Of a stretch of DNA of 64,000 bases, positions 6,656 through 60,764 are shown in pieces (the stretch's first letter is position 1; the number at the start of each line of letters is the position of its first letter). The notes beneath the pieces are model-generated. The model had not been told where the DNA came from. It searched no databases and worked only from the letters and a program-made list of their open reading frames with translations. A program made the translations under genes and the position numbers. Source of the stretch: Patescibacteria group bacterium (GTDB taxonomy: Bacteria; Patescibacteriota; Microgenomatia; UBA8517); contig DATFUL010000002.1 in NCBI GenBank assembly GCA_035260845.1, positions 7,033 through 71,032 of the forward strand. Direction: 5' to 3'.

Positions 6656-6692
6656 ATATTATTTGATATATTCTCTAGTTGAAGATTAAAGT

Positions 6693-10954: not shown

Positions 10955-10956
10955 AC

Positions 10957-19390: not shown

Positions 19391-19531
19391 ATGTCTACAA
19401 AGAGAACTTATCAACCAAGTAAAACAAAAAGGCGAAATACCCACGGTTTTATGTCTAGAATGAAGACTGTTAGCGGTCGCAATGTTCTAAAAAGAAGGAG
19501 ACTTAAAGGTAGAAAAGTCTTAGCCGTCTGA
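19391..19531 (+). CDS. rpmH: 50S ribosomal protein L34
   Basis: Manual translation gives [46 protein letters not shown] (46 aa), the canonical L34 pattern. It is absent from the ORF track because it is under 60 aa. It immediately precedes rnpA. Confidence 0.9.
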
Positions 19532-19548
19532 TCTTCAATTTTAATTAA

Positions 19549-19893: not shown

Positions 19894-20121
19894 ATGAAGG
19901 CTTTGTTAATTTTTTTAATAAAATCTTATAAGAAAGTTGTTTCACCAGTTTTTGAAGTTTTGTTTGGAAAAGCTTGCAGGTTTACACCAACCTGTTCCGA
20001 GTATACAATTGAGGCTCTTGAAAAATTTGGAGCAAGTAGGGGAGTCGCGCTTGGAGCTAAAAGATTTTTAAGATGCCACCCTTGGGGAGGCTTAGGATTT
20101 GATCCGGTACCAAATAAATGA
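19894..20121 (+). CDS. yidD: membrane protein insertion efficiency factor YidD
   Basis: 75 aa. [66 protein letters not shown] has the conserved C-F-PTCS-Y...R-CHP-GG-G-DPVP signature. Confidence 0.95.
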
Positions 20122-20954: not shown

Positions 20955-21399
20955 AGACCTCAAAGGTATTACAGACGAGCTATTAACCTTAATGGGGACA
21001 AAAGCTACCGCTAACGTGTCATATGATGAAACGAATAAATCATACTTAGTTAATATTGATGGGGGAGACGAAACAGGACTTTTGATTGGTAAAAAAGGGG
21101 AGACACTTTTGAGTTTACAAACAATATTAGGCATTCTTCTTAAAAATGGATCTGATGAGTGGGAGAGAGTTACAGTCAACGTTGGTGACTATTTGGAAAA
21201 AGAGGAAGATTATCTTAAAAACCTTGCCGACAGTGCCGCCTCCCGTGCAAAAGAAACTGGAGAACCACAAAGTTTATATAACTTAAAACCAAACCAAAGA
21301 AGAATAATCCATATGATTCTCTCAGAAGACAAAGAAATTGTTACCGAATCAGTAGGGGAGGGAGAAGAGAGATATTTAGTTGTAAGAATTAAAAAGTAA
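20938..21399 (+). CDS. jag: KhpB/Jag (EloR) RNA-binding protein with KH and R3H domains
   Basis: KH-like LIGKKGETLLSLQTILGILL. R3H-like NLKPNQRRIIHMILSEDKEIVTESVGEGEERYLVVRIKK. ATG at 20938 is preferred over the TTG at 20911 used by the ORF track. It overlaps the yidC 3' end. Confidence 0.8.
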   Translation: MEKRVKDLKGITDELLTLMGTKATANVSYDETNKSYLVNIDGGDETGLLIGKKGETLLSLQTILGILLKNGSDEWERVTVNVGDYLEKEEDYLKNLADSAASRAKETGEPQSLYNLKPNQRRIIHMILSEDKEIVTESVGEGEERYLVVRIKK

Positions 21400-23256: not shown

Positions 23257-25857
23257 ATGAACACGGATTCAAAACTGCGGGTCATACTCTTTTCTGATCC
23301 AAACTTTTTGGCTATTAATATTTTAGAGACTCTCCTTTCTAAAAATTGTTTAGTTAGTGTTGTTTCCGATGATCTTAATAAATGGCAAGAAAGAACCAAA
23401 CAAATCGCAACCAACTCCAGATTCTCGTTTGTAAAAATTTCAGAATATAAAAACCTTGATAATTTTTCCTACGCAATTTTTTGTGGAGGATTTTTAAATA
23501 AAGAAAGTATTACTGAGGACTTTAAGAAGTTCATTACAAATAAAAACTTTGGTACCGCAAAAACTCTGGCAATATTTCCATTTGAAACATTCTCCTTAAA
23601 AATCAGTAGCAAAATTGCTATCAGCGATAACGCCGGGATTATCTATTTGGGCGACCTTATGGGTCCAAGAATTGACCTTAATAGTAACCTTTTACTGCCA
23701 ACTCTTATAAGTGAAATGCTAACTAAAAGAACTGTGACTCTCCCTGTGGGGGAAATATTTTATCCAGTATTTATAACTGATGCAGCAAAAACAATTGTTA
23801 AGTGGTTATTATCATTTGGGCCCTACGGCCGTGACACTTTCCTTTTGGGGAGACAGTTTTCTAGCAGTGATTTTTGGAAACAAAACCTTAAATCATTCCC
23901 CGACCTGAAAGTTCTTTACGACACAAAACTCGAAACAAGATTTATTCCAAAAGGGTACGATATCCATTTTATTAACTCCAACCTTAATATTTGCTTGAAC
24001 GAGACTTACAGATGGTTAATTGGAACAAAAACCGTTCAGCAAAAAGAAAAAGTTAAAAAACCAAGAAAGTATAAATTTTTGCGCCCAGTAATTACCTCAA
24101 TACTTTTTATTCTTTTCTTGCCATTTATAACATCACTTATATCTGGAACTTTTCTATATTTTTCATACAAGCAATTTTTGCTTGAAAAAATTAGTAATGC
24201 ACAAAATTTAGTTTTATCTGCGAAAACAAGTTTTGTTGTTGGAAAAGCCGTGAGTGGGGTTTTGGGCAACATCCCATTATTGGGTAGAGTATATAAAGAA
24301 ACCTCCTATGTTTCAGAAGCAGGTGAAATCTTAACAGATATGTCACTGGCCATTATTCCAACAGCTGAGGATAGTCGCCAAATTTTAGGTAATGTACTGG
24401 GTGGGGGAATATTTGACCTAAAGGAGCCAGTATCACGTATAAAATTAAATTTGGATTATATTTACCAAGAACTTTCCTTTTTTGAGATCTTGACCAAAAA
24501 TTCTGTTGAGTCTGGTATTTTATCTGCAAAACAAGTTCAAGAACTTGTTGATTTTGATAAATTCAAAGATCTTTCACATGAAGGTGGCGTAATAGCCAAC
24601 AATCTGCCTTCAATTCTTGGAACTGAGGAGAACAAAAACTATTTAATACTTTTTGAGAATAATATGGAGCTAAGGCCCACTGGTGGGTTTATAGGTTCTT
24701 ATGGAGTTATTAACTTTGGAGGCGGAAAGATGAACGGTCTGACTGTTAATGATATTTATTCAGCAGACGGACAACTTAAAGGGCATATAGAACCCCCCGC
24801 TCCAATTAAAAACTATCTAAATGAAGCAAATTGGTGGTTTAGAGATAGTAATTGGGATCCTGATTTTCCCACATCATCCGAAAGAGCAGAGTGGTTTTTA
24901 AACAAAGAAATGGACCAAAAAGTGGATGGTGTTATTGCAATCGATTTGTCACCAATCAAAACAATCTTAAACTACACAGGTCCAATATTTTTACCGGATT
25001 ACAATTTAACAATTACTCCAGATAATTTATATGAAAAAACACAAGAAGAAGCCCAGGCGAACTCTTTCCCGGGATCTAGGCAAAAAGCTAGTTTTTTGAC
25101 AGCTTTATCAAGAACACTTATAGATCAAATAGTGAAAATGAATCCAAAAGACAGAGTCTTGGTACTAAAGGCTTTTTACGAAAGTTTGGAAGGGCGTCAC
25201 ATGCAAGTTTATTTACATGACAATAATGTTAGTAGTGCTCTAAATAAACTGGGTTGGGATGGCAAGATTCAATCTTATTCGTGCGGAGACGAGTGCTACT
25301 CGGATTTTGTTGGGGACGTTGAGGCAAACGTTGGGGTTAATAAATCCAATTATTTTGTAAAAAGACATCTTAATTTTAATGTTTCCTTTGATCCGCAAAA
25401 AATTACAAGGCAGATGACAATAGCTTTATCTAATTCTGCAAATTCGGCTCTCGGAGTATCTGGAATATACAAAAGCTATATTAGAATTATGATTCCGACA
25501 GACTCAAAATTGATTAGTGTAAATAGCCAGGCTGGGACAACTCAGATAAGCCTTAAACCAGAAATAACTCAAGAAAAGGGCCGCCAAGAAGTTGGAGTCT
25601 TGGTTGAAACAACCCCTGGGCAAAGTAAAAATATTGAGTTTGTTTGGCAAAACGATTTGCCTCAAAATCAAGTTAACAGTTATGGTCTTTTTGTCAGGAA
25701 ACAGGCAGGAGTTGAGGCAGATCCATTGTCCATTCAAGTTACAGGTATTGGTCAGATCGAAAGCCGTCCTGTTTTTTCCTTGACCGGGAACAGTGTTTAC
25801 ACGTATAATACGCTACTTAGCCAAGACTTCTTTGCCAGACTATCTTGGAATCATTAA
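23257..25857 (+). CDS. large membrane-anchored extracytoplasmic protein of unknown function (possibly DUF4012-like)
   Basis: 866 aa. Internal TM (ITSILFILFLPFITSLISGTFLYF). Conserved-looking block NNMELRPTGGFIGSYGVINFGGGKMNGLTVNDIYSADGQLKGHIEPPAP. The family name is a recollection, not verified. Confidence 0.45.
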   Translation: MNTDSKLRVILFSDPNFLAINILETLLSKNCLVSVVSDDLNKWQERTKQIATNSRFSFVKISEYKNLDNFSYAIFCGGFLNKESITEDFKKFITNKNFGTAKTLAIFPFETFSLKISSKIAISDNAGIIYLGDLMGPRIDLNSNLLLPTLISEMLTKRTVTLPVGEIFYPVFITDAAKTIVKWLLSFGPYGRDTFLLGRQFSSSDFWKQNLKSFPDLKVLYDTKLETRFIPKGYDIHFINSNLNICLNETYRWLIGTKTVQQKEKVKKPRKYKFLRPVITSILFILFLPFITSLISGTFLYFSYKQFLLEKISNAQNLVLSAKTSFVVGKAVSGVLGNIPLLGRVYKETSYVSEAGEILTDMSLAIIPTAEDSRQILGNVLGGGIFDLKEPVSRIKLNLDYIYQELSFFEILTKNSVESGILSAKQVQELVDFDKFKDLSHEGGVIANNLPSILGTEENKNYLILFENNMELRPTGGFIGSYGVINFGGGKMNGLTVNDIYSADGQLKGHIEPPAPIKNYLNEANWWFRDSNWDPDFPTSSERAEWFLNKEMDQKVDGVIAIDLSPIKTILNYTGPIFLPDYNLTITPDNLYEKTQEEAQANSFPGSRQKASFLTALSRTLIDQIVKMNPKDRVLVLKAFYESLEGRHMQVYLHDNNVSSALNKLGWDGKIQSYSCGDECYSDFVGDVEANVGVNKSNYFVKRHLNFNVSFDPQKITRQMTIALSNSANSALGVSGIYKSYIRIMIPTDSKLISVNSQAGTTQISLKPEITQEKGRQEVGVLVETTPGQSKNIEFVWQNDLPQNQVNSYGLFVRKQAGVEADPLSIQVTGIGQIESRPVFSLTGNSVYTYNTLLSQDFFARLSWNH

Positions 25858-32984: not shown

Positions 32985-34766
32985 TTAAATAGCAGGTCCA
33001 GTACCCTTTAAATAAATAGCTGCCCAGGGTTGGTAATTACTAACAAATGTCTTTTTATAAATACTTTCTCCATTTCTTGTTACTAAATAGTTAAATGTAA
33101 TTTTGGCCCCACTTGCAGCAAAATCTGTTTGTTTTAGAGTTCCAGCTGGGAGAGTTGGATCGTCCTGGTAAATTGTAGGTAGTGCTGGTATAACATTAGA
33201 AACAACTGGTTTAGAAACCACCGACACTCTTCCATCACTTGTCCCATAAAGTTCAAAAACTAATGAATAATTTTTTGGATTATTTTTGGCTTGAATCAAG
33301 ATGTACCCCGGTGTGTCGTTTTTAAACTTAAAATCTGGTGAAGGTGCATAAACTGTGGCGTCAATTCCTGGCGCGGAATTTTGTTCGTAATAACCAACAC
33401 GATAAGCATGTGCTGTACGTTCCATTATTGGCAGTCCCGCATTAAGTGTTGCACGAAAAAGTGTCGTTGAGACTTGGCAAACCCCACCGCCATCACCGAG
33501 AATGGTGCGGCCTTCAGAAATTATGTAGGCCTCTTTATATCCTGTTAGTTTTGAAACATCACCCAAAGTTTGATTAAAAGAAAATGTGTCACCCGGTTTA
33601 ATCAATGTACCATTTATTCTACTGGCCGCTAAATTTACGTTAAAAACACGCCCAGGAATTGAATGGAAATAGGTGGAAGTACCGCGACCAATCATCTCCT
33701 TTATTCCCAAGTTGTTGATTTCGTTGGTTGCGACATCGGACTTAGTTCTTGTTACTGGAACATCAATTGCAATATTTTTGTCTGTTGAATCCGCTAATTT
33801 ATCAAGACTATTTATTAGTAGATCTTTAAGTTTTTGATTGTCTAAAGTAATTCCATCAAGTGCTGGTTGAAACTCACTAACTTTTAAGCCATTAAATTCA
33901 AATTTAGGATTTTGCGATTCCCTATTTACGCTTTTTGAAACTGCAAGGATTGTGTTATTTATTTCTTGATCGTTATAGCCCCCACTTGGGTTTATGAATT
34001 TAAGGATACGGTCTTTGTTATAGTCAAAACTTTCCACTTCAAATTTTAAAGAAATACTTTTGTCCAAATATTTTTCTCCTCTGGTTTTTGCTGCAATTAT
34101 TTCTTGATCGCTTAAGCGTGGATCAATTGTTTGCATTGGAATTTGAACGTCACCAGTTCTTGCATAGGACAAAACCTGTCCAACAATTGCCTTAAGTAGT
34201 TCTTGGTCAACCAGCGTCCCTTCCGCACCTTTATTCACTTCAATATTTCCATTTTTGACTTCGATTGATGGATAAATCGGATTAACTGTAATTTGTTTAT
34301 CGATTAGAGCAATAATATTTGAAAGTTTTTCGGTACTTATATTTGTGGTGAGACCCAAGTTTTGCCCCTGTCTCAAAAGATTAATTTGTGTAATTGAATC
34401 AGTAATAAAGTTTCCTGTTCTGGTTAAGTTGTAAACTCTATCAACCGAAGCCTCAAAGTTGTAACTTATATCTATGTCTTTTGTATTTAAATCAAAAGAT
34501 TTTTTTGTGCTTACTAGACTAATTTTGTCTGCTATTTTAACTTCATTTGTAAGAGTTGCAACCGCCTCAGCAGGAGTTTGCCCACCAAGACTGATACCGG
34601 CAATATAAATATTTGGATAAATTCTGCCTAGGTATTTAACCTGATAGAAGAGGAAAAACCCTAAAACGAAAACAATAACTGAAAAGAAGAAGATTACAAC
34701 CGAACGACCAAAGTTTTTCGGTTTTTTAGGCAGTTTTTTATTTACAATCGATCTCGCACTGCTCAT
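32985..34766 (-). CDS. VanW-family protein (membrane-anchored, cell-wall associated)
   Basis: 593 aa. N-terminal TM (VVIFFFSVIVFVLGFFLFY). C-terminal VanW core GGGVCQVSTTLFRATLNAGLPIMERTAHAYRVGYYEQNSAPGIDATVY. Confidence 0.75.
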   Translation of the reverse strand: MSSARSIVNKKLPKKPKNFGRSVVIFFFSVIVFVLGFFLFYQVKYLGRIYPNIYIAGISLGGQTPAEAVATLTNEVKIADKISLVSTKKSFDLNTKDIDISYNFEASVDRVYNLTRTGNFITDSITQINLLRQGQNLGLTTNISTEKLSNIIALIDKQITVNPIYPSIEVKNGNIEVNKGAEGTLVDQELLKAIVGQVLSYARTGDVQIPMQTIDPRLSDQEIIAAKTRGEKYLDKSISLKFEVESFDYNKDRILKFINPSGGYNDQEINNTILAVSKSVNRESQNPKFEFNGLKVSEFQPALDGITLDNQKLKDLLINSLDKLADSTDKNIAIDVPVTRTKSDVATNEINNLGIKEMIGRGTSTYFHSIPGRVFNVNLAASRINGTLIKPGDTFSFNQTLGDVSKLTGYKEAYIISEGRTILGDGGGVCQVSTTLFRATLNAGLPIMERTAHAYRVGYYEQNSAPGIDATVYAPSPDFKFKNDTPGYILIQAKNNPKNYSLVFELYGTSDGRVSVVSKPVVSNVIPALPTIYQDDPTLPAGTLKQTDFAASGAKITFNYLVTRNGESIYKKTFVSNYQPWAAIYLKGTGPAI

Positions 34767-43108: not shown

Positions 43109-43978
43109 ATGAAGACGTTAAAAATAGTGTTTGTAGTTCTTGTTACCCTGGCAGTAGTAGTTACAACTGGCTTTTTCTTAATTGGTTATCTTAAACCGAA
43201 GCCGGGTGGGCTTATGGTTGTTACTACACCCACGTCAAGCGTTTACATAAACGGAAAACTTATGGGTAAAAGTCCATACAAGGGCACAGATACCGCAGGC
43301 CAAATCAATCTTAAATTAATACCAGACGTAAGTGATCAAAGTTTAATTCCTTATGAAACAAAGGTTAATTTAGTAGCTGGTATTCAAACCATTGTTAGAC
43401 GTGAATTTGGAACTACAGAGGACGCCTCTTCCGGGGATGTCATTTCTTTTGATAAACAAAGCGGGAACCTTTCTGGCCTTGTGGTTGTTTCAAATCCAGA
43501 TAATTCCCAAATTTTTGTGGATGGTGTAGCTCAGGGTTTTTCTCCTTATAATCTAAACTCTGTTGCTACAGGTTCGCATCAAATTACAGTTAAAGCTGCT
43601 GGGTTTTTGGACCGGACAATGGACGTTAAAACACAAACTGGTTACAAGCTTACTGTCTTTGCCAAATTAGCAAAAACTTCTGAAGTTGAGCCAACACCAA
43701 CTTTAGAGCCAAGCCCTATCCAAACAAGCAAAACTTATATTTTGATTAAAGATACCCCGACTGGATTTTTAAGAATGAGAACGGAACCAGGAGCAAAAGG
43801 TGAGGAAATTGCCGAACTTAAACCCGGCGGTAAATATTTGTTTTTAGAGGCAGATATCACTTCTGGTTGGTTTAAAATCCAATATCAAGACTCGGCTCCT
43901 GGGCTTCCAAACGGGATTGTTGGTTGGGTTTCTAACCAATATGCTGAGATTTCAACAGAGAGTGCAACCTTGAAATAA
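43109..43978 (+). CDS. PEGA-domain protein with C-terminal SH3-like domain, membrane-anchored
   Basis: 289 aa. N-terminal TM. Two PEGA-like repeats (VVTTPTSSVYINGKLMGKSPYKG... and VVSNPDNSQIFVDGVAQGFSPYNLNSVATGSHQITVKAAGF). C-terminal GWVSNQYAEI SH3-like segment. Confidence 0.5.
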   Translation: MKTLKIVFVVLVTLAVVVTTGFFLIGYLKPKPGGLMVVTTPTSSVYINGKLMGKSPYKGTDTAGQINLKLIPDVSDQSLIPYETKVNLVAGIQTIVRREFGTTEDASSGDVISFDKQSGNLSGLVVVSNPDNSQIFVDGVAQGFSPYNLNSVATGSHQITVKAAGFLDRTMDVKTQTGYKLTVFAKLAKTSEVEPTPTLEPSPIQTSKTYILIKDTPTGFLRMRTEPGAKGEEIAELKPGGKYLFLEADITSGWFKIQYQDSAPGLPNGIVGWVSNQYAEISTESATLK

Positions 43979-44947
43979 TTAGGAAGCTCCAGTAACTGAA
44001 ACTCCTGAGTAAAGTACCCAATAAACTAAAATTAACCAAATTGCGACTGTTGTAATTAGAGACTTGTCTGTTAAAAGCAATCTTTCAGGTGTTTCGGATC
44101 TATTTTCAAAAATTAAAGACTCATACCTCATGATTCCAAAAATAGTAACCGGGATTGTAAACATCAAAAGCTTATCTATAGTTGTGGTTCTGCTAAGCTC
44201 GGCGAGAACTAACCAAAAAGGAAGAGTGGCTTTCGGGCTTTCAAAAAATGTAAAAAGAGCCCAACTCATCCAGGAAGCATTGCCAAACATGGTTACGTAA
44301 GAATCTAAAAGTTCTCTTTTATACTCTCCAAGACTTTTCCTTGTCATGGTATTATCTTGACCAACTAAATTTAATTCGGCACGGCGTTTACCTGAGGCTA
44401 AAAATAATGCAACTGAAATTACACAAAGCAGGAACCAAACCGAAAGATGCGCGTTAACTACAAAGGCTCCGGCATAAACTCTAATTACGAATCCGGCAGC
44501 AATTATGACAATATCTACAATTGCTATATTTTTTAATCCTAAGCTATAAAATATTTGCATTAAAATATATCCAAGTACTAAGAAAAAAAATAAAGAATTG
44601 AGATTTGCACTAATAAGGAGTGCAAATAACGCCAAACATACAGCTTCTGTTACTGCAAACCCTAAGGGAAGAGCGCCACTTGCAATTGATCTAAACCTTT
44701 TTGTTGGATGCAGTCTGTCACGTTTTATGTCTAATATGTCATTAATTACATATGTCGCTGAGGTTGCAAAACAGAAGGCAATAAAACCTTGGAAGACCAA
44801 ACTAAACTCTCCCTTATCGAATAGAATTCCAGAAAGGAACACCGCCGCAAAAAGAGATATATTTTTAATCCAATGAATTGGACGAGCTGCTTTAATTGCC
44901 GCCGTAATTAAACTGGTTTTTGGTTTTTTGATCTCTGAGTTAACCAT
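43979..44947 (-). CDS. UbiA-family prenyltransferase (decaprenyl-phosphate phosphoribosyltransferase-like)
   Basis: 322 aa, polytopic. YVINDILDIKRDRLHPTKRFRSIASG contains the exact NDxxDxxxD motif of UbiA-family polyprenyl-phosphate transferases. Confidence 0.65.
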   Translation of the reverse strand: MVNSEIKKPKTSLITAAIKAARPIHWIKNISLFAAVFLSGILFDKGEFSLVFQGFIAFCFATSATYVINDILDIKRDRLHPTKRFRSIASGALPLGFAVTEAVCLALFALLISANLNSLFFFLVLGYILMQIFYSLGLKNIAIVDIVIIAAGFVIRVYAGAFVVNAHLSVWFLLCVISVALFLASGKRRAELNLVGQDNTMTRKSLGEYKRELLDSYVTMFGNASWMSWALFTFFESPKATLPFWLVLAELSRTTTIDKLLMFTIPVTIFGIMRYESLIFENRSETPERLLLTDKSLITTVAIWLILVYWVLYSGVSVTGAS

Positions 44948-45981
44948 AAAATAAATCCACCGAGTACAACTGCCACTCCAACCATTGTATAAATCTTTTG
45001 ACTGGTATTCAAATTAAGTGCAATTATCCCAAGAAATGCCGTTACTGTCCAATAAAAAATAGCAACTTGGCCTTTAGTCAGACCAGCATCAAGAAGTTTA
45101 TGGTGCAAATGATTTCTGTCTCCCCAGACAGGGGATTTACCTTTTAATATCCTATTAACAATAACATAACCTGTATCAATTAAAGGTATTCCAAGAACAA
45201 CAAGAAGAACGCCAACTTTGGCAGTTGCTAGTATTGAAAGAACTCCAAGAAGATAACCAGCAAGAGTACTACCTCCATAACCTGGCATTATTTTTTGGGG
45301 AAAAATATGCCAAGGCAAAAATCCTAAATACGCTCCTCCTGTAATTGCTGCCAAAATAATGATCGGCCACTGAGTAATGTCCGCAGAATATTTAAGTGAA
45401 ATAAGCGCGATTACAAATGCCGCTATTACTGTTACGCCGGAAAGTTGGCCATCGACTCCTTTTGCTCCCATATTAATCATATTCATTAAAAAAGTTACCC
45501 AAAAAATGGCAAACAGGTCGGCAATTAGCCAAATATGATGTGTTATTCCAAAGATTGAAAAAGTTATTTGCGGCTGACTTAAATCAATAACACCACCAAA
45601 AGGATTTGTAATGAAAGCAATACCAATTCCGGCAGCAATTGGAGCACTGGCCGCAACAACTCCGAGTACAAGTCTAAGATATGGGTTCAAATTATATTTA
45701 TCATCAAGCACTCCCATGACCACTAAGATAAGTGCACCCACCAAAATGCCAATTATGTGTTTATCTATTGGCAAGAATATGAGTGTGGCAATTAAAAGGG
45801 CTATGAATATTGGAATTCCACCACCTCTTGGAGTTGGGGTAACATGAATTGTTTTTGGGTGACTGCTTTTTTTTGGGTCGTCTATAATTCCTAATTTTCC
45901 GGCAAATTTAATCACAACAGGAGTTGTTATAAACGATATAGCCATCGAAGTGAGCCAAGGTGGTAAAAAAAGGTTCCACAT
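44908..45981 (-). CDS. glycosyltransferase family 4 polyprenyl-phosphate sugar-1-phosphate transferase (MraY/WecA/TagO-like)
   Basis: 357 aa, about 10 TM. IDDPKKSSHPKTIHVTPTPRGGGIPIF...GVLDDKYNLNPYLRLVLG...HLHHKL matches MraY/WecA signatures. Confidence 0.65.
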   Translation of the reverse strand: MWNLFLPPWLTSMAISFITTPVVIKFAGKLGIIDDPKKSSHPKTIHVTPTPRGGGIPIFIALLIATLIFLPIDKHIIGILVGALILVVMGVLDDKYNLNPYLRLVLGVVAASAPIAAGIGIAFITNPFGGVIDLSQPQITFSIFGITHHIWLIADLFAIFWVTFLMNMINMGAKGVDGQLSGVTVIAAFVIALISLKYSADITQWPIIILAAITGGAYLGFLPWHIFPQKIMPGYGGSTLAGYLLGVLSILATAKVGVLLVVLGIPLIDTGYVIVNRILKGKSPVWGDRNHLHHKLLDAGLTKGQVAIFYWTVTAFLGIIALNLNTSQKIYTMVGVAVVLGGFILWLTQRSKNQKPV

Positions 45982-45984
45982 AAT

Positions 45985-46317
45985 TTAAAAAAATCCAACC
46001 AATAAAATAATCTTCAAGACGGCTACAGTTAAAAGAAATGAGACAAAGGCACTGGAAATTATTAAAGTTTTTTTCAAAAAAAGATCTTTTGTAAAACGGC
46101 AGACAAAAATGTTTAGAAGTACTACGACAATACCAATTGCAGGAACTGTTATAAGCCCGAGAGTTGGTGTCAGTTGTTCACCGCCGCTGGGAAGGCCATA
46201 GAAAAGAGGCACAACAGGAGGAAGGAATGTCTTCAAAGCCAATATAATTAGGATAGAAAGGACATTAATAGCAAAAGAAAAGTAAACATAGCCCTTGTAC
46301 GGTATATTCTTCCACAT
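45985..46317 (-). CDS. small membrane protein, hypothetical
   Basis: 110 aa with 3 TM helices. Located between the GT4 and GT-C genes. Confidence 0.4.
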   Translation of the reverse strand: MWKNIPYKGYVYFSFAINVLSILIILALKTFLPPVVPLFYGLPSGGEQLTPTLGLITVPAIGIVVVLLNIFVCRFTKDLFLKKTLIISSAFVSFLLTVAVLKIILLVGFF

Positions 46318-46370
46318 CCAAGGCCTATTTTACCATTTGCCAAGACAAATGGCCAAGGTTCTCGCGGCAG

Positions 46371-47885
46371 CTATTTTTTTGGAGCTAAATCTATGCGGGC
46401 GTATATGCTGGCGTTTTCAATCTGATTAATAAGAAGATACTTTGTTCTTAGGAGTGGATTTAAATCAGGAAACGGATGGGCTGAAGTTAATACTATAAAT
46501 TTAGGGAGATTGTTTGTAAGTTCTCTAGCGACTTCAGATTGGCTTGAATAATCGAGTACATGATAATCGGCAACATATTTTATTGGAGGCAACCTTCTGG
46601 AAAGAGCATACACAACAGCCGAATCGGGATCCCACATAAAGACACGGTCAGATACTTTACTTGATTGCGACAAAAATTTGGCTATTTCGTAATTTCGATT
46701 AACTGTTGAACCGAAGGCCTGAAAATACTCCATCTTATTTGTCTTTCCTGTAGCGAAATTGATGAAACGAACATAATAACTGGCTGTTTGGTAATAGTAG
46801 AATTTATAATAGACGGGCACAAAAAAGGTCAGAGCTAGGGGTAATACTGCAAGTGACTGCATAACGCTTTTTTCAGCAAAAAACATGCCAAAAAGAAGAG
46901 ATAAAGGTGGAAGCACCTGGACAAAATAATGTGGATATGGTCTTTCCGATAAAGTAACTGCAAAAAGGGCAAGGAGTGTCCAAATGCTAAAAAGAATAAA
47001 GTTTCTGGATACTTTTTTTCTACTCAGAAATAAAGCAAAACTACCAAGAGCAACAATCAGCGCTCTTATTAAAAGGGGAGCGTTTCTAACATAGAACGGT
47101 TTTTGAACATCGCTTGGCCTAAAGCTGCTTAAATAACCAACATTTTGTAGGAATGCAGCCTTGATATATTCTGGGAGTGCACCTCTAAAGTAATACCAAC
47201 CAAAGGTAAACAAGATTGGCGTGCCAAAACCTAAGCTTAAAATAATAGTATTTTTGATTACATTACCCCAATTTTTAAAGTCATTAGTAATAAACCAATA
47301 AATTATTATTACAGGCAAATCAAAAGCCGCAGGAACTTTAAAAAGAGTGCCAAGCCCAAATAAAACTCCTGCAAAAAATATTTTTTTAGAATTTAGGCTT
47401 TCTGAAAGAAGAATAAATAGGGCAATAATAGTAAAACCAATCATAAAAAGTTCGGAATTGACTATATTCCCTTCAAAAAGTGGAATTGTAGTCAAGATCG
47501 CAAAAATTGAGGTCGATACCATCTGAGCCTTTTCATTTTTCTCAAACAGCTTTGCTGACAATTTATAAAAGAAGACGATACTAATTAGGCTCCAGAAGCA
47601 TAGAATCGCCTTAAACCAGAATAAGTTTCCGGCAACCGCCGCAGTTAAATAAAGAAGGGGGGGTTTGTTGTCATGTATATCTTTATAGAGGGTGAGTCCC
47701 TGGCGCACACCCTGACCAAGACTCATATAAATCATTTCGTCGCCATAATAATAGGGCTCAAAGAAAGACGGAATCCTAAGAATCAAAACGAGTGCTAAAA
47801 TTCCCAAGACCCAAGCTGGAAAATCAGGAAGATGTAATTTGTCTCCGACTCTGTGAAGCATATTCCAGAATGATTTCATTACCAT
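46371..47885 (-). CDS. GT-C fold glycosyltransferase (ArnT/PMT family 39/83-like)
   Basis: 504 aa with more than 10 TM. The first periplasmic loop YYGDEMIYMSLGQGVRQGLTLYKDIHDNKPPLLYL carries the DE...KPPL motif typical of ArnT/PMT_2 enzymes. Confidence 0.55.
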   Translation of the reverse strand: MVMKSFWNMLHRVGDKLHLPDFPAWVLGILALVLILRIPSFFEPYYYGDEMIYMSLGQGVRQGLTLYKDIHDNKPPLLYLTAAVAGNLFWFKAILCFWSLISIVFFYKLSAKLFEKNEKAQMVSTSIFAILTTIPLFEGNIVNSELFMIGFTIIALFILLSESLNSKKIFFAGVLFGLGTLFKVPAAFDLPVIIIYWFITNDFKNWGNVIKNTIILSLGFGTPILFTFGWYYFRGALPEYIKAAFLQNVGYLSSFRPSDVQKPFYVRNAPLLIRALIVALGSFALFLSRKKVSRNFILFSIWTLLALFAVTLSERPYPHYFVQVLPPLSLLFGMFFAEKSVMQSLAVLPLALTFFVPVYYKFYYYQTASYYVRFINFATGKTNKMEYFQAFGSTVNRNYEIAKFLSQSSKVSDRVFMWDPDSAVVYALSRRLPPIKYVADYHVLDYSSQSEVARELTNNLPKFIVLTSAHPFPDLNPLLRTKYLLINQIENASIYARIDLAPKK

Positions 47886-47911
47886 TCTATATTAGGATAT
47901 AATTTGCCTAT

Positions 47912-48856
47912 ATGCAAAAAGTTCTCATTACTGGGGGTGCTGGATTCATTGGGTCTCATTTATGTGAGGTTTTACTAAACAAAGGTTATAAGATAATTTG
48001 TTTAGATAATTTACTAACTGGATCTAAGAAAAATATTGAGCCACTTTTGGGAAACTCTAATTTTGAATTTATTGAAGCTGATGTTTGTAAACCTTTAGAC
48101 AATTTTGTTAATCAAGAAATTAGTCATATTTTTCATCTGGCCTCTCCCGCCTCGCCAATTGATTATCAGAATCACCCAGAAGAAACGTTGTTAGTTAACT
48201 CTCAGGGAACGCTAAATGTTTTAGCACTAGCGCGTGACTCAAAAGCCAAAATTTTGGTAGCATCTACATCTGAAGTTTATGGGGATCCGCTTGAGCATCC
48301 CCAAAAAGAAACTTATTGGGGAAATGTTAATTCGTTTGGGCCAAGATCTTGTTATGATGAAAGTAAGCGTTTTGCAGAGTCTGCTACTTATATATTTTTA
48401 AATAAATATAAAATTGACGCAAGGATAGTTAGGATTTTTAATACCTACGGTCCTAAAATGCAAAAAGACGATGGACGAGTAGTAAGTAATTTTATTAATG
48501 CGGCTTTAACCAACCAAGATATAAAAATTGACGGAGATGGAAGCCAGACCCGTTCTTTTTGTTTTGTCTCCGACTTGGTGGATGGAATAACAAAAGCCAT
48601 GTTTTCGGAACAGACAACCGGGGAGATCTTTAATTTAGGAAACCCGGTTGAATATACTATTAAAGAACTAGCCGATAAGGTGATTAAACTTACCGCCGCA
48701 AGCTCTCAAATTAAATATAGTGAAACCTTTAGACAAGATGATCCAATGAGAAGAAAACCAGATATAACAAAAGCAAAAAATGTTTTGGGTTGGGAGCCAA
48801 ATGTAAATATTGAAGAGGGACTTGGGAAGACTATTGAGTATTACAAATCTCTTTAA
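47912..48856 (+). CDS. uxs: UDP-glucuronate decarboxylase (UDP-xylose synthase), SDR family
   Basis: 314 aa. MQKVLITGGAGFIGSHLCEVLLNKGYKIICLDNLLTGSKKNIEPL. Catalytic YDESKRFAE (YxxxK). STSEVYG. High similarity to the UXS/ArnA decarboxylase-domain pattern. Confidence 0.75.
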   Translation: MQKVLITGGAGFIGSHLCEVLLNKGYKIICLDNLLTGSKKNIEPLLGNSNFEFIEADVCKPLDNFVNQEISHIFHLASPASPIDYQNHPEETLLVNSQGTLNVLALARDSKAKILVASTSEVYGDPLEHPQKETYWGNVNSFGPRSCYDESKRFAESATYIFLNKYKIDARIVRIFNTYGPKMQKDDGRVVSNFINAALTNQDIKIDGDGSQTRSFCFVSDLVDGITKAMFSEQTTGEIFNLGNPVEYTIKELADKVIKLTAASSQIKYSETFRQDDPMRRKPDITKAKNVLGWEPNVNIEEGLGKTIEYYKSL

Positions 48857-48864
48857 ACCTTAAT

Positions 48865-50352
48865 TTACACCTTCTCTGTAACTCGATATTCTATATATTT
48901 GCCAAGCATTAGTCGAGTATGCGCATCAATTCCAGGTAAAGCTCCAAAGAAAAACCCAGCGACTGGCAATAAAACAAATTCAAAAGGAGTAAGTATTACT
49001 CTCCAAAGCGGATAATCTTTTGGCCTTTCGGGTTTATGAATATTATCAATAAAAATCATAACTAGAAGAAAAATAAGCGCAACAGTAAGAGTCCAAGAAG
49101 ATAATTTTGGAACTGTGTAACCTAGAGCGGTTCTTCCAAAAGCTGGGTTCAATAGTGTTGGAACGGTTAAACCGATTGTAATAATGAACCAATTAACAGG
49201 CCAAAGGAAATGGGCCCAAAGAACCTGGAAGAGCCTTGTTGTTTTTTCCAAAAATGGAATATCGGTTAATAAATAACTTTTAATTATCCAAGGATCGTCA
49301 CTTACCCCCCAAGCCCACCTTTGAATTTGTTGATATTGATTTTTGACAGTTTTCCAAAATGAAGTCGATTGTGGGGCGTCAGCAAAAAGAGGTAAGTAAA
49401 TTGGTTCGACTTCGATTCCACCACCCTTTTTGTAAAAAGTTTTAAAGAATATTCCCCAGTCCTCCGGAATTTTATCTGCATCCCAGTAACCAATTTCATC
49501 CAACAACTTAAAAGATAGGGAATAGTTAGCGGTATTAATTAATCTATCGCGTCTTGCAAGCTGAGAAAGATTTAATATAGACATTAAGGAATTGGGGACA
49601 CGGGTAATTGCTGGAACTTCCCAAATGTTGTTATAAAACATAACCGAAGGCTGCCAAAACATTCTATAACGGTTTGGATTATCCAAAAATTTAAATGTTA
49701 AGGAAGCAAAATGTTTGGGGTGATATTTATGATCGGCGTCACATGAAGTAACTGTAAAGTAATCTATGTTTTTCTTTTCTCGGTCTATATAGTTTTCTTT
49801 GACCCAGATTGCGGCAAAGCGTTCGTTTGAGGCTTTTCCTGCAACCTCACCCATTTCGAGTTCGTGAACAGTAATAAAAATATTTTTAAATATTCCTTTA
49901 AATTTTGCTTTTAAATATTTAACTTTTTCTTCTCTGTCTTCTCTGACTTCTTTTCCTTCCATAGCAAGAACAACGTTAATTTGTTTGGTAGGGAATTCTT
50001 GAGACGCAAGAGAGTTGAAAGTTCTTTCAAGAGTATGAATGGGTTCTTTATAGGTTGGAATAATTACAACATGCTCAACTTTTTCCCAATCAGGAAAGCC
50101 TTTGACGTCACCCATCCAATCATATACTTTTGCAGCCTGAATTCTTAAATGAGCAACAATTGCTGAGATTGCAATTTGAAGGGATTGGAAAAACCAATAA
50201 ATATTAAAAATTAAAACAAAGTAAGCAACAACTTGAGGCATTACAAAAATTCCCCAATAGGGGAAGAGGATAAGATTCCAAGAAGTAAAACCCGGCAAAA
50301 TTTCAAGAAGACGAAGAACTCCTTTTTCGTGTTTTCTAATATAGTCCTTCAT
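48865..50352 (-). CDS. processive family-2 glycosyltransferase (cellulose/chitin-synthase-like) membrane protein
   Basis: 495 aa. HVVIIPTYKEP. TSCDADHKYH (DxD). QIQRWAWG (QxxRW). N- and C-terminal TM helices. Confidence 0.65.
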   Translation of the reverse strand: MKDYIRKHEKGVLRLLEILPGFTSWNLILFPYWGIFVMPQVVAYFVLIFNIYWFFQSLQIAISAIVAHLRIQAAKVYDWMGDVKGFPDWEKVEHVVIIPTYKEPIHTLERTFNSLASQEFPTKQINVVLAMEGKEVREDREEKVKYLKAKFKGIFKNIFITVHELEMGEVAGKASNERFAAIWVKENYIDREKKNIDYFTVTSCDADHKYHPKHFASLTFKFLDNPNRYRMFWQPSVMFYNNIWEVPAITRVPNSLMSILNLSQLARRDRLINTANYSLSFKLLDEIGYWDADKIPEDWGIFFKTFYKKGGGIEVEPIYLPLFADAPQSTSFWKTVKNQYQQIQRWAWGVSDDPWIIKSYLLTDIPFLEKTTRLFQVLWAHFLWPVNWFIITIGLTVPTLLNPAFGRTALGYTVPKLSSWTLTVALIFLLVMIFIDNIHKPERPKDYPLWRVILTPFEFVLLPVAGFFFGALPGIDAHTRLMLGKYIEYRVTEKV

Positions 50353-50401: not shown

Positions 50402-51814
50402 TTAGCGTAGGCGGGGGAATAGCGGAGCCTCTGATTTTATTTTTGGCCCTTTGAATTGATTTTCAATTTTTTGCGCGGTCTCTGGGAGGAAGGGTTTTAA
50501 CTCAAACCCGATCTGACGAATTCGGTCTACACAAATTTGAAGAAAATCTTTCAGCTTTGTTTCATCCTTTATATTCCATGGCTCAGTTTTATTAATCATC
50601 TCATCTAGGGATTTTATCTCTGTCTGAACAATTCCAATTACTTGATCCAACTTGAATTCTTCGACATCTTTTATGTACTCTTTTGTAAATGCAGGTTTAT
50701 ATTCAGTGAAAACATCAACTTTTTCTGAGAGTTTAGCAATCCTTGCAACAACATTTCCCAAACCGTTTGCCAAGTCGGAATTAAACTTTGTATCAAAAGA
50801 TTTCAATGAAATATTTCCATCTGATCCAAACGAAACAGCGGAAATCATCAAATATCTGGCCCCATCGACTCCGTATTTATCTACCAACTGCTTCGGGGTT
50901 ATTACGTTCCCCAGAGATTTGGACATCTTCTGTCCGTAGATTGTAAAAAATCCATGAGCGAAGACTGTGTCTGGTATTTTTTCTCCAGCTGCAATAAGTA
51001 ACGCTTCCCAAATTACTGCATGAAACCAAAGAATATCCTTTGCCATTAAGTGAAGATCGGCTGGCCAGAATTTTTCTTTATCTTCTAAGAATTTTGTCGC
51101 AGAAAAATAATTTATTAATGCATCCACCCAAACATAAATAGTTTGAGATTTATCCCATGGAAGTGGAATTCCCCAAGTGACTCCTTCTCGGGAAACCGAG
51201 ACGTCCTCAATTCCTTGCTCAATACGGCTTAAGATTTCGTTTTTTCTTTCTTCCGGAAGAATGTTATATTCCGCCGACTTTAATTTTGGCAAGACCTTAT
51301 CGTTCACCAACTCTTTGAGTTTTAGAAAATAGTTCTTCTCTTTTTGATACGAAATCTCTTTGTTTGGATGAAGTGGGCATCTGCCGTCGACAAGCTCTGA
51401 TTCTTTGTAAAACCTTTCACAACCAATACAATACGGTCCTTCGTAAATTCCAGAATAAATATAGCCCGCATCGTAAACCTTTTGCAATAGTTCACTAACT
51501 ATTTTTTCATGCCTTGGATCTGTTGTCCTGATAAAAAAATCGTAGTCAATGTTTAGAAGTTTCCAGGCCTCCTTAAATTCTTGGGAAACTTTATCAGCAA
51601 GTTGGATCGGTGTAAGACCTTTTTCTTTGGCTACTGTCTGAATTTTTTGGCCATGTTCATCAGTTCCCACTAAAAAAAAGACATTTTCTTTGCCAAACTT
51701 TCCGCGGTAGTACCTGGCAATAATATCTCCGGCCAAAGTGGTATAGGCGCTCCCGATATGGGGGGCGTCGTTCACATAATAAATAGGAGTTGTGACGTAA
51801 TATTTCTTAGGCAT
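50402..51814 (-). CDS. metG: methionine--tRNA ligase (short form)
   Basis: 470 aa. YYVTTPIYYVNDAPHIGSAYTTLAGDIIARYYR. Zn knuckle CPLHPNKE...C. KMSKSLGNVITP. No C-terminal tRNA-binding appendix. Confidence 0.9.
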   Translation of the reverse strand: MPKKYYVTTPIYYVNDAPHIGSAYTTLAGDIIARYYRGKFGKENVFFLVGTDEHGQKIQTVAKEKGLTPIQLADKVSQEFKEAWKLLNIDYDFFIRTTDPRHEKIVSELLQKVYDAGYIYSGIYEGPYCIGCERFYKESELVDGRCPLHPNKEISYQKEKNYFLKLKELVNDKVLPKLKSAEYNILPEERKNEILSRIEQGIEDVSVSREGVTWGIPLPWDKSQTIYVWVDALINYFSATKFLEDKEKFWPADLHLMAKDILWFHAVIWEALLIAAGEKIPDTVFAHGFFTIYGQKMSKSLGNVITPKQLVDKYGVDGARYLMISAVSFGSDGNISLKSFDTKFNSDLANGLGNVVARIAKLSEKVDVFTEYKPAFTKEYIKDVEEFKLDQVIGIVQTEIKSLDEMINKTEPWNIKDETKLKDFLQICVDRIRQIGFELKPFLPETAQKIENQFKGPKIKSEAPLFPRLR

Positions 51815-58945: not shown

Positions 58946-59830
58946 CTACAACGGCAAACGAAACTTTGTAAAGGAACCAGGATAGAGGACTTCGGTTCCG
59001 CCGAATGAGCGCTTGAAGTGGGTGAATCCCAACCAACTTTTATTAGGGAAGCGTTCGTCATAGATCCCTTCGAAGTCAAATATTTTATAACCCTGTTTCT
59101 TAGCCCATAGTATAGCTTGGTAGAGAAGTGGAGCTTGAGATAGGGAAGTGCGACCTTCATTATTTGTAAATCCGTACCAATAGTAAGTGATACAGTTTGA
59201 TCTGTCGTGTAAAGAAGTCGTGAAAAGCGCTCCTCCTATAATTCTGCCAAATATATTGTGCGACGCAAGTAATAGGGACTTATTACCAGGAAAACTTTTG
59301 CGTAGATTCAAAATTTGGTTAAGACTTGGCACGTAACGGCTTAATTTAACTGAATTTTTCCAGGCTTTGTGCCACTTTTTTATGTCTTTTATGGACGAGT
59401 AAGATTTAATTAAATTGGTCTCTCCCCTTTTCACGACCCTTCTAGTATCTTTTTTAAAACTAGCAAGAATTTGTTTTTGGCTTTTGGTTAGGTCAATTTG
59501 GAGTGTTTTTGTGGGTAAATATGGAGATTTGCTTACTTTAAAGCCATTTGAGGCTAAAACTTTAATATCTTTATCTGTTTTAGGCTCCACAATAACTTGA
59601 AAAATACGGTATTTTCGGCATAATTTGTCTATTACTTCAAAATCTATTATTTCTGGTCTCTGAACTTTAAGAAAAGAGCCTACCATTGGAAACTTTTTAA
59701 TGAAGTAATTTATTTCCTCTACTCTTTCAACTATCCAACCTTCACGCCTTAAGTAATCAGCATATTCAGAAGTTTGCCTTATATCGATCATGTTAGAAAC
59801 TTGCTTTTGAGAGCCCGAATTTTGCGGCAA
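58946..59830 (-). CDS. FemAB-family peptidoglycan-branch aminoacyltransferase paralog
   Basis: 294 aa. C-terminal IFDFEGIYDERFPNKSWLGFTHFKRSFGG matches the FemX/FemAB C-terminal block (YDLGGI...FK--FG). Confidence 0.55.
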   Translation of the reverse strand: MPQNSGSQKQVSNMIDIRQTSEYADYLRREGWIVERVEEINYFIKKFPMVGSFLKVQRPEIIDFEVIDKLCRKYRIFQVIVEPKTDKDIKVLASNGFKVSKSPYLPTKTLQIDLTKSQKQILASFKKDTRRVVKRGETNLIKSYSSIKDIKKWHKAWKNSVKLSRYVPSLNQILNLRKSFPGNKSLLLASHNIFGRIIGGALFTTSLHDRSNCITYYWYGFTNNEGRTSLSQAPLLYQAILWAKKQGYKIFDFEGIYDERFPNKSWLGFTHFKRSFGGTEVLYPGSFTKFRLPL

Positions 59831-60764
59831 GTTTAAGGACTGGCCAGCGCACTTTTTCTGCCAACTTATAAACTTTATAAAGAGGTTTATTTATTACCAA
59901 ATCCCAGGTGCCCAAGAATTCAATAACTTTTGGACTATACCCTTCTTTGAATTTAGTAAAACCTTTACCTTCTTCCCTCCCCCAAAGATCAAATGTTTTT
60001 AAACCAAGTTTTTTACCAAACTTAATTGCTTCCCACATCATAAGATTATTGGCCATAACATTTTTGTGCTGCTCAGTGCTGGCCCCGTATGGGTAATATA
60101 AAAAATCGCGCCAAGTAAATAAAATCCAAGTTGTAATAATTTCTTTTTTATAAGTGGCAGTCATAAGGTGGGCAATTCCGGCATTTTTTAATATCGCGAA
60201 CATTAATTTGTGATATTTTTCTGTATGGGCGTAGAAGCCCTGCCTATTTACAGTTTCACGAGTTAATTCAAGATATTTATCAAACGCTTTATCTGAATTA
60301 TCTTCTTTAACAGTAACGCCGCTCTTTATAGCCAGGCGAATGTTGTAACGGGTTTTACTAGAAAAACTTTTCATCAAATCTTCTTCGCTTGGTTTTAAGT
60401 CAATCCAAAAAGTTGTTGGGGTAAAAACGGTTTTCCCTGGAACCGCGCCATATTTTGTAAGAAGTTTTATGGCCTTGTCCTTATCTGCACAAGCCATATT
60501 ATCTTTTTTGACAGGGTAATTCGGTTCAAGTTTAATAAATACTAAATTGTTTTCTTTTCCAATTTTGACAAGGTCTTTTATCATTTCCTCTGTCGGCATT
60601 GGGCCTTTTTCAAAAATCGCAATTTTATTTGCAGTAAACGGTAGTTTGTGGATAGTAAAAAGACCCCATTTTGTTTCTAATATTTCGTTTCCCCATTCTT
60701 TTCTAAATACTGCCCAAGCAGAAGTTTGCAACGGGTGAGTAGCAATTTTATCTAGATTGTTCAT
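59793..60764 (-). CDS. FemAB-family (FemX-like) aminoacyl-tRNA-dependent peptidoglycan aminoacyltransferase
   Basis: 323 aa. N-terminus HPLQTSAWAVFRKEWGNEI (compare FemX QDLGWAKVK). C-terminus TFDLWGREEGKGFTKFKEGYSPKVIEFLGTWDLVINKPLYKVYK. Confidence 0.6.
   Translation of the reverse strand: MNNLDKIATHPLQTSAWAVFRKEWGNEILETKWGLFTIHKLPFTANKIAIFEKGPMPTEEMIKDLVKIGKENNLVFIKLEPNYPVKKDNMACADKDKAIKLLTKYGAVPGKTVFTPTTFWIDLKPSEEDLMKSFSSKTRYNIRLAIKSGVTVKEDNSDKAFDKYLELTRETVNRQGFYAHTEKYHKLMFAILKNAGIAHLMTATYKKEIITTWILFTWRDFLYYPYGASTEQHKNVMANNLMMWEAIKFGKKLGLKTFDLWGREEGKGFTKFKEGYSPKVIEFLGTWDLVINKPLYKVYKLAEKVRWPVLKLAAKFGLSKASF

Follow-up and report, generated by a model that had tools for sequence, protein, structure and literature searches.

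A conserved four-gene operon suggests a minimal lipid-linked pentofuranose system in Woesebacteria

Do six neighbouring genes in a 64 kb stretch of DNA from a Patescibacteria metagenome-assembled genome (Microgenomates/Woesebacteria, GC content ~0.37; "the window" is this whole stretch) encode a single polyprenyl-phosphate-linked pentose pathway and, if so, which pentose would it handle? The original prediction had read all six as one unit, hinting at a xylose- or arabinose-containing envelope polymer. Our answer is narrower: with moderate confidence, we propose that four of them, at 43979-47885 on the minus strand, constitute a minimal lipid-linked pentofuranose system of Woesebacteria/Microgenomates, built on a polyprenyl-phosphate phosphoribosyltransferase (PPPRS) and a GT-C glycosyltransferase, the sugar probably being ribofuranose. 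To our knowledge, the patescibacterial envelope is experimentally almost unstudied outside Saccharibacteria and there is no Woesebacteria culture; the searchable literature yielded nothing relevant on this cluster in either Patescibacteria or Woesebacteria.

A phosphoribosyltransferase and its three operon partners

All six open reading frames (ORFs) are present at the positions originally given and, judged by Pfam, NCBIfam and a match to UXS1, the families originally assigned to them are essentially correct. They do not all share a strand: the gene for UDP-glucuronate decarboxylase (UDP-xylose synthase, UXS) is divergent from the GT-C gene, with 26 bp between the two start codons, and convergent with that of a family 2 glycosyltransferase (GT2). 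The other four form a co-directional minus-strand block, given here from its last gene to its first:

43979-44947, minus strand: PPPRS, UbiA superfamily, Rv3806c-like, 322 aa; final gene of the core operon
44699-44743, minus strand: DNA encoding the PPPRS catalytic motif NDILDIKRDRLHPTK, in which NDxxDxxxD is joined by HPxK from the K/R cluster
44908-45981, minus strand: WecA/TagO-like polyprenyl-phosphate N-acetylhexosamine (HexNAc)-1-phosphate transferase (PNPT), PF00953, 357 aa
45985-46317, minus strand: orphan membrane protein with three hydrophobic segments (predicted transmembrane helices), 110 aa
46371-47885, minus strand: GT-C glycosyltransferase of ArnT-like architecture, PMT_2-type, 504 aa; leads the core operon

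The argument starts with the UbiA-family protein which, by family membership and residues, is assigned as a PPPRS. It scores 75.9 bits against Pfam PF01040 and 221 bits against NF008978, the NCBIfam equivalog model for decaprenyl-phosphate phosphoribosyltransferase, passing the curated cut-off of 207, such that automatic annotation would already name this homolog. Two sister models for decaprenyl-phosphoribose (DPPR) synthase stay under their own cut-offs (191 against 234 and 168 against 474 bits), and generic prenyltransferase models reach 38 bits at most. Against M. tuberculosis Rv3806c (PDB 8j8j), the E-value is 6.4e-41. The protein carries no extra domain within its 322 aa and holds an exact NDxxDxxxD motif, N69-D70-I-L-D73-I-K-R-D77; the degenerate DNA pattern of the catalytic motif finds one match in the window, with 0 expected by chance.

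The structure of Rv3806c provides a list of the residues that bind the Mg, ribose, 5-phosphate and pyrophosphate of phosphoribosyl pyrophosphate (PRPP), and the phosphoribose site is not common to true UbiA prenyltransferases (PMC10994848). When conservation was scored over 79 distinct orthologs, R22, K28, Y66, N69, D70, D73, D77, K83, R86, Q131, Y134, K139, F153, K187, R188 and E191 (window numbering) proved invariant, and these correspond to the PRPP and catalytic-motif positions of Rv3806c; the last three of them make up the second motif, GKRxxE. Identical between the two proteins, in the numbering of Rv3806c, are R22, K28, Y70, N73, D77, K87, R90, Q135, Y138 and K143, whilst Y157 becomes F, a substitution that occurs in mycobacteria too (PMC10994848). 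Counted by PRPP-site position, 11 of 12 are invariant across the orthologs (with Phe at Tyr157), and the sole variable one, Lys208, is matched by Lys in the window protein and in 60 of the 79. A UbiA of the menaquinone or heme O type is ruled out by the profile scores together with these residues, and the phosphoribosyltransferase identity that had been suspected from the motif is upheld.

The GT-C glycosyltransferase is 100% identical to the NCBI record VKC53_00780, a hypothetical protein. PMT_2 is the sole profile family that it matches, at 23.8 bits, under the gathering score of 26.1 that some of its homologs exceed, and neither an NCBIfam scan nor PDB sequence and profile searches found anything. 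An AlphaFold2 model built on 30 homologs (predicted local distance difference test score, pLDDT, 83.3; predicted template modelling score, pTM, 0.84) was compared with the PDB using Foldseek. ArnT (5f15) ranked first, with E = 5e-8 and a template modelling (TM) score of 0.59, followed by the archaeal and eukaryotic oligosaccharyltransferases (OSTs) AglB and STT3/OST (E = 1e-6 to 1e-3, TM 0.38-0.47) and, further down, by AftD (E = 1.3e-2), PMT (E = 2e-2) and EmbB (E = 0.27); set against the 5e-8 of ArnT, the AftD and EmbB values do not bear out an Emb/Aft-type arabinofuranosyltransferase. The motifs YYGDE (D49-E50), DNKPPLLY and SERPYPHY are invariant, and the first two, which belong to the first outer loop, are laid out like the DE...KP of ArnT. 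The GT-C fold that had been predicted is therefore confirmed by the model, and the protein matches neither the STT3 profile nor the WWDYG motif. On this model, the GT-C is of ArnT/PMT_2 type, apparently outside any characterised family. Characterised GT-Cs of this type use polyprenyl-monophosphate sugars, and the only consumers of polyprenyl-phosphate-linked pentofuranose that we know of are GT-C enzymes. A polyprenyl-phosphate-linked pentose pathway, in the general form first suggested, is hence the best reading of the locus, because the UbiA protein is a phosphoribosyltransferase and the fold of the GT-C is closest to ArnT.

The third partner scores 75.7 bits against PF00953 (gathering score 27), 95.5 bits against the WecA model TIGR02380 (cut-off 326) and 41 bits against MraY, the latter two both under cut-off; by BLASTP, it is closer to E. 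coli WecA (E = 8e-17) than to MraY (3e-7). LDDK, NMxxxGxDG and DRNHLHH are all conserved. Sequence comparison thus makes it a WecA/TagO-like member of the PNPT superfamily with a predicted HexNAc specificity, and a role as the MraY of the cell is dismissed on the same profile scores and alignments. Of its earlier description as a "MraY/WecA-like GT4", the initiating transferase stands but the GT4 does not, as the Pfam name Glycos_transf_4 denotes the PNPT superfamily and not CAZy GT4. The 3' end of its gene overlaps the PPPRS start by 40 nt (44908-44947), which suggests translational coupling; the overlap recurs in L001, L004 and L163 of the related loci described below.

Between GT-C and PNPT, in 84 of 84 loci, sits the 110-aa protein, recognisable by its three hydrophobic segments and a conserved LPPxxPLFYGxPxGExQL loop. 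Its ~120 homologs (79-139 aa) are all unnamed and include no fusions, and no Pfam or NCBIfam family matched it, even with Pfam scans of 19 orthologs included. ArnE/F, GtrA, SMR and DUF2304 were each considered and gave no signal, whether in those Pfam scans, by hhalign, or in the names and fusions of the 120 homologs. We regard it as the sole in-operon candidate for a flippase or accessory subunit.

Four further genes border the block:

43109-43978, plus strand: membrane-anchored surface protein with PEGA (E = 6.3e-15) and SH3b (SH3_3, E = 4e-6) domains
47912-48856, plus strand: UXS, 314 aa; accessory gene in a variable slot
48865-50352, minus strand: synthase-type membrane GT2, 495 aa, assigned by PF13632 and motifs
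50402-51814, minus strand: methionyl-tRNA synthetase (MetRS); the GT2 gene starts 49 bp downstream, in the same direction

How firmly do these genes belong together? Across 84 related loci (L001-L084) compared for gene content and order, GT-C, the 110-aa protein and PNPT are present in 84, UbiA in 83, PEGA in 76, GT2 in 63 and UXS in 42. The first four are contiguous without insertion wherever present (83-84 of the 84 loci), with the GT-C gene two genes from PPPRS in every locus that has both (83/84). Most junctions of the region are broken by insertions in at least one genome (GT2 to GT-C, UbiA to PEGA, PEGA to the M23 peptidase, and others), and the four core genes are its sole multi-gene block that is never interrupted. 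The single six-gene unit originally envisaged therefore shrinks to four invariant genes, UXS being optional and GT2 pairing with MetRS. In a scan with one genome per species, 457 relatives of the GT-C were found, the best 80 all from Woesebacteria/Microgenomates with identities of 48-76%, and the core arrangement is kept in the distant metagenome relatives L087, L095 and L163 at 42-49% UbiA identity. The most distant full-core locus, L163 (UbiA 49%, GT-C 39% identity), still has GroEL and the M23 peptidase nearby. A promoter and terminator scan gave no enrichment over shuffles and was uninformative. The module is uninterrupted in at least ~80, and probably >450, species-level genomes of ~1 Mb; since it is kept so widely, and since the GT-C is 48-81% identical across related genomes where the neighbouring MetRS is only ~41% identical, an important envelope function seems likely.

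The proposed pathway and its acceptor

From the gene families, catalytic residues, GT-C fold and contiguity described above, we infer which substrates are used, what the acceptor is, what the 110-aa protein does and how the PNPT product relates to the GT-C. PPPRS, going by its family, would transfer 5-phosphoribose from PRPP to polyprenyl phosphate at the cytoplasmic face, and the 5-phosphate would probably be removed by a phosphatase, one not identified among the genes scanned. Lipid-linked ribofuranose would then reach the outer face, with the 110-aa protein as the sole in-operon candidate mover, where the ArnT-like GT-C would pass the pentofuranose to an extracytoplasmic acceptor. The WecA-like PNPT, apparently coupled to PPPRS in translation, would make a polyprenyl-diphosphate-HexNAc as the likely primer of the acceptor glycan; WecA primes arabinogalactan in this way, and TagO teichoic acid. 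GT2 may make a backbone polymer, though it is a frequent neighbour only. The prediction that follows is of a pentofuranose on the woesebacterial surface, most likely D-ribofuranose rather than arabinose or xylofuranose, because no epimerase was found. Perhaps the 5-phosphate is retained instead, in which case the sugar would be ribose-5-phosphate and the product anionic and teichoic-acid-like.

Arabinose in particular, part of the original prediction, is left unsupported because no DprE1/DprE2-like gene was found locally, either among the ~50 window ORFs that were profile-scanned (to which all local absences reported here refer) or among Pfam-annotated genes within +/-10 kb in L001-L004; the Emb and Aft GT-Cs are, moreover, poor fold matches.

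What accompanies PPPRS elsewhere? A search of metagenomes with the degenerate DNA pattern of the catalytic motif brought up 80 PPPRS loci, with GC contents of 0.23-0.72, and a PNPT gene is adjacent only in the PPPRS clade nearest the window (L087, L095, L102, L163). A Pfam survey of 139 ORFs beside 23 PPPRS loci from outside the Candidate Phyla Radiation (CPR) counted Acyl_transf_3 18 times, HAD 11, DUF6080 8, Sulfatase 8, GtrA 5, FAD_binding_4 4 and short-chain dehydrogenases 4, and did not place PNPT among the 25 most frequent families. Among these recurrent partners are the phosphatase, flippase and DprE1/E2-type epimerases of known pathways; no family on this list came up in the window ORFs scanned. 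DUF6080 (best E = 1e-194 among its eight members) might be a GT-C partner family, perhaps GT136.

Two individual loci also stand out. In the low-GC locus L136 (2355-10100), an apparently complete pentofuranose set surrounds PPPRS, in contrast to the reduced operon of Woesebacteria: read from ORF translations rather than a profile scan, it comprises a PAP2-like 151-aa protein (GFPSTHS), an epimerase of the short-chain dehydrogenase/reductase (SDR) type, an FAD oxidoreductase, a GtrA-like 136-aa protein and multi-pass proteins. In L098 (260-8761), PPPRS directly follows a type IV pilus cluster with a PilB-like ATPase, a PilC-like protein and several prepilin-type proteins, an arrangement that recalls the PPPRS-dependent arabinosylation of pilin in Pseudomonas aeruginosa (PMC11127046).

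Several observations weigh against a lipid-linked pentofuranose system encoded by the four genes. The partners common elsewhere are missing here: no HAD or PAP2 phosphatase for the 5-phosphate was found in the operon or among the window ORFs scanned (HAD accounting for 11 of the 139 neighbours elsewhere), the MATE, GtrA and SMR flippase families had no match among those ORFs, and neither did any epimerase, common though these are beside other PPPRS genes. The GT-C shows no match to DUF6080, which of the large families without known function is the most frequent beside those genes, and its family profile aligns with E. coli ArnT by hhalign without significance (E = 0.21). Because OST-type enzymes are its second-best fold matches, the modelled GT-C could instead use a PNPT-derived polyprenyl-diphosphate-glycan. 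The L098 PPPRS (43% identity) has neither PNPT nor GT-C nearby. Finally, the whole region from GroEL to UvrD is syntenic across Woesebacteria, and no independent lineage was found with the four core genes in different flanks; because this synteny extends even to L163, the neighbourhood alone is weaker, non-independent evidence of linkage, and more weight falls on the absence of interruptions in the block and on the conservation of the PNPT/UbiA overlap. The GT-C was also considered as an ArnT (GT83) ortholog, which sequence does not back, given that hhalign value and the empty NCBIfam and PDB searches.

Could the product be specified further? We posit, as a doubtful extension of the four-gene pentofuranose system, a ribofuranose secondary wall polymer or surface glycoconjugate, probably essential, built on a polyprenyl-diphosphate-HexNAc primer, in which PNPT and PPPRS are coupled and the three-helix family replaces a MATE or GtrA flippase. 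If true, this would be a minimal, independently streamlined CPR counterpart of the logic of mycobacterial arabinogalactan.

The same genes can be read with proteins as the acceptor. The GT-C would then be an oligosaccharyl- or glycan-transferase, similar to PglB/AglB or TfpW/PglL, moving a PNPT-built glycan or single pentofuranoses to surface proteins such as pilins, an S-layer or the PEGA/SH3b protein, and not to a wall polysaccharide. Such a role is consistent with AglB and STT3 being second in the structural search, with a PNPT in the operon (enzymes of this type start lipid-linked glycans in some such systems), with a conserved surface-protein gene abutting that operon, and with a Wzy_C gene of the O-antigen ligase/O-OTase type in the same window. 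The pilus-adjacent PPPRS of L098 is a further point in its favour, as PPPRS supplies pilin arabinosylation in Pseudomonas aeruginosa (PMC11127046). We nevertheless hold protein glycosylation to be unlikely: the GT-C lacks any STT3 profile match or WWDYG motif and is much smaller than OSTs, ArnT is its better match at a TM-score of 0.59 compared with 0.44-0.47, and the PEGA gene is convergent and sometimes split from the operon by insertions. This alternative concerns the acceptor more than the chemistry, and so overlaps with the pentofuranose system that we favour.

Regarding the two candidate participants named above, the PEGA/SH3b gene adjoins UbiA in 76 of the 84 loci, as it does in L087 and L163; the contigs of L120 and L137 begin at UbiA and show the UbiA-PEGA pair alone. 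In the window, it abuts the PPPRS gene in convergent orientation. It is a conserved neighbour and, speculatively, a candidate acceptor. The Wzy_C membrane protein is encoded at 21469-22719, and after it come an RNase H gene and the gene of a large DUF4012 protein (23257-25857); despite lying 21 kb from the operon, this enzyme could act as the ligase of a PNPT-primed glycan.

Less probable still is that the genes share no pathway at all, and that a frozen gene order holds together PNPT, PPPRS, GT-C and GT2 enzymes at work in separate envelope processes. It draws on the housekeeping flanks (GroEL, M23 peptidase, MetRS, RmuC, UvrD), which are syntenic too in most loci, on a GT2 as tightly paired with MetRS as with anything, and on the solitary PPPRS of L098. 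Yet the four core genes alone form a never-interrupted multi-gene block in the region, the PNPT/PPPRS overlap points to translational coupling, all four products are called as membrane enzymes acting on polyprenyl-phosphate carriers, and no GT-C-independent use of the PPPRS product is known.

UXS, GT2 and the wider window

Was the original prediction right to bring in UXS as a source of pentose? By sequence, the protein is a genuine UDP-glucuronate decarboxylase: it matches human UXS1 (4gll) over residues 2-312, its full length, at 338 bits (E = 6.5e-100), against 145 bits for the next-best SDR and 83 bits for ArnA. Just half of the syntenic loci (42 of 84) have it. UDP-xylose, its product, is a nucleotide sugar that serves Leloir enzymes in the cytoplasm, and an ArnC-type polyprenyl-phosphate transferase would be needed to load xylose onto a lipid. 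Three points therefore leave xylose transfer via the GT-C unsupported (the dispensability of UXS, the nucleotide-sugar nature of what it makes and a GT2 that is not of ArnC type), and we correct the idea that UXS feeds the GT-C. More probably, UXS is an accessory that varies between lineages, its UDP-xylose going into some decoration step in the cytoplasm, with no role as a donor source for the GT-C.

The "processive QxxRW GT2" of the original prediction fared better. Its motifs D, DAD (205-207), PEDW (296-299) and QIQRW (Q342-W346) are invariant, PF13632 matches at 37 bits (gathering score 27), and hhalign aligns it with PgaC at E = 5.8e-4 through the ED and QxxRW motifs, compared with E = 0.37 for ArnC; on motifs and alignment, an ArnC/GtrB-type polyprenyl-phosphate transferase is ruled out. 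The fold evidence is weak because the AlphaFold2 model is poor (pLDDT 54), the top matches being HAS and BcsA with TM-scores of at most 0.33, and a profile search against PDB sequences gave nothing useful. We assign the protein, on these sequence features, to an uncharacterised family of membrane-embedded, synthase-type enzymes (processive, BcsA/HAS/PgaC/NodC-like), with 522 clusters at E <= 1e-30, none of them named by NCBIfam. No other polyprenyl-phosphate-sugar synthase (GtrB/DPM1-type GT2) was detected among the window ORFs scanned.

Identity of the GT2 is 62-80% between loci and 74-90% among its top 120 database matches, which places it with the best-conserved genes of the region, on par with GroEL, a degree of conservation unusual for a polysaccharide synthase that hints at an essential product. 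Where present, its gene always adjoins MetRS. The MetRS itself is 38-49% identical to its positional counterpart in most loci and 63-70% in L018, L031, L047, L049 and L084, a pattern that does not follow the identities of GT-C and GT2 and suggests either that two types of MetRS exist or that one gene has displaced another at an unchanged position.

The junction between GT2 and GT-C is a variable slot. It is empty in, for example, L044, L070 and L078; its other occupants are UXS, a multi-pass membrane protein of 300-482 aa (33 loci) and, in rare cases, a small GT2, a sugar transferase of the Bac_transf family, an EamA transporter or genes of unrelated kinds. The multi-pass protein (for example L080:8650-9981 and L054:8653-10023) lies directly upstream of GT-C, carries an N-terminal WGDEGFSA motif and has weak matches only, to PMT_2 (18 bits) and exosortase-EpsH; it may be a second GT-C-like enzyme. 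That it is a paralog of the core GT-C was not demonstrated (hhalign E = 0.032, the same 18 bits to PMT_2 and no PDB match).

A single six-gene pathway to an arabinan- or xylan-like polymer, whether with UXS-derived pentose loaded by an ArnC-like GT2 or with the PPPRS product epimerised to arabinofuranose, can be set aside as highly improbable: it has on its side a superficial parallel with the Arn operon (a UXS/ArnA-type decarboxylase, a GT2, an ArnT-like GT-C and a small membrane protein) and the homology of PPPRS to Rv3806c, but UXS is absent from half of the loci while GT2 and GT-C stay highly conserved, the GT2 has ED and QxxRW and aligns with PgaC (E = 6e-4) and not ArnC, the 110-aa protein is unrelated to ArnE/ArnF, none of ArnB, ArnD, DprE1 or DprE2 occurs among the window ORFs scanned, and AftD and EmbB are poor fold matches.

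Beyond the locus, two adjacent FemAB-family genes (58946-60764) and a VanW/PG_binding_4 protein (32985-34766) indicate that the peptidoglycan has peptide cross-bridges, as would fit a wall of Gram-positive type. The window also holds the chromosomal origin region (16566-21399), with DnaN (16566-17678) and DnaA (17869-19248), both on the minus strand, RnpA, YidC and a Jag/KhpB-like protein. A type IV secretion-like set occupies 300-15975, comprising a pilin-like protein (300-677), a PrgI-like protein (9911-10954), a VirB4/TraG P-loop ATPase (11658-13463) and several large proteins without family match; conjugation-like type IV secretion systems have reportedly been described for Patescibacteria, and this set fits.

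Comparison with known systems

Where, then, does the woesebacterial module stand amongst characterised pathways? The Arn pathway, which adds 4-amino-4-deoxy-L-arabinose to lipid A, shares with it the ArnT fold of the GT-C, with DE and then KP in the first outer loop, and a UXS/ArnA-type decarboxylase, a GT2 and a small membrane protein nearby. The likeness goes little further: sequence similarity of the GT-C to E. coli ArnT is not significant, the GT2 is synthase-type, UXS is a true and dispensable UDP-xylose synthase, the small protein is unrelated to ArnE/ArnF, and neither ArnB nor ArnD was found among the window ORFs scanned.

The GtrB-type systems of Gram-positive bacteria (GacI/GacJ/GacK/GacL; CsbB/GtcA/YfhO) make a lipid-linked monosaccharide inside the cell, flip it and add it by a GT-C to a wall polymer, which is primed by a WecA/TagO-type PNPT (GacO); the small membrane protein GacJ is encoded in the operon. 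The same make-flip-add logic and PNPT primer would recur in Woesebacteria, which also have an in-operon small membrane protein. Here, however, the donor synthase would be a UbiA-type phosphoribosyltransferase using PRPP and not a GT2 using a UDP-sugar, and Pfam offers no family for the small protein, not even DUF2304 or GtrA.

Closer in its chemistry is the mycobacterial decaprenylphosphoryl-arabinose (DPA) and arabinan pathway (Rv3806c, Rv3807c, DprE1/E2, Rv3789, Aft/Emb), whose Rv3806c is homologous to PPPRS and has the conserved PRPP site in common with it. On our reading, both combine a PNPT primer enzyme, WecA priming the linker in mycobacteria, with a pentofuranose donor carried on a lipid and a GT-C acting outside the cytoplasm. 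The window ORFs scanned, on the other hand, include no DprE1/E2, PAP2 phosphatase or homolog of the GtrA-like Rv3789, and the woesebacterial GT-C is much closer to ArnT than to AftD or EmbB. Whilst mycobacteria have six or more GT-Cs, there is one here, with perhaps a second in the slot protein of some relatives, which may be GT-C-like.

The nearest parallel is the three-component pentofuranose glycosylation system of Citrobacter youngae O1/O2 (ORF15-ORF14-ORF12), in which PPPRS makes polyprenyl-phosphate-ribofuranose, a flippase exports it and a GT-C adds it to a glycan, with optional epimerases turning ribose into xylofuranose or arabinofuranose; PPPRS and GT-C are here an experimentally established pair (Kelly et al., PNAS 2024; PMC11127046). 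In both cases, a UbiA-family PPPRS with N-D-x-x-D-x-x-x-D and GKRxxE is encoded next to a GT-C whose nearest structural or sequence relative is ArnT and, without an epimerase, the predicted sugar is ribofuranose. Woesebacteria differ in lacking a HAD phosphoribose-phosphatase domain on or near PPPRS, in having a 110-aa three-helix orphan instead of a MATE flippase, and in coupling a WecA-like PNPT to PPPRS. Moreover, the Citrobacter system is a serotype-variable add-on, whereas the woesebacterial module belongs to the conserved core of a CPR lineage. The PPPRS and GT-C strategy for pentofuranose would thereby extend to the CPR in a reduced form, one that offers a new candidate for the flippase or accessory role and suggests that PNPT and PPPRS are functionally coupled.

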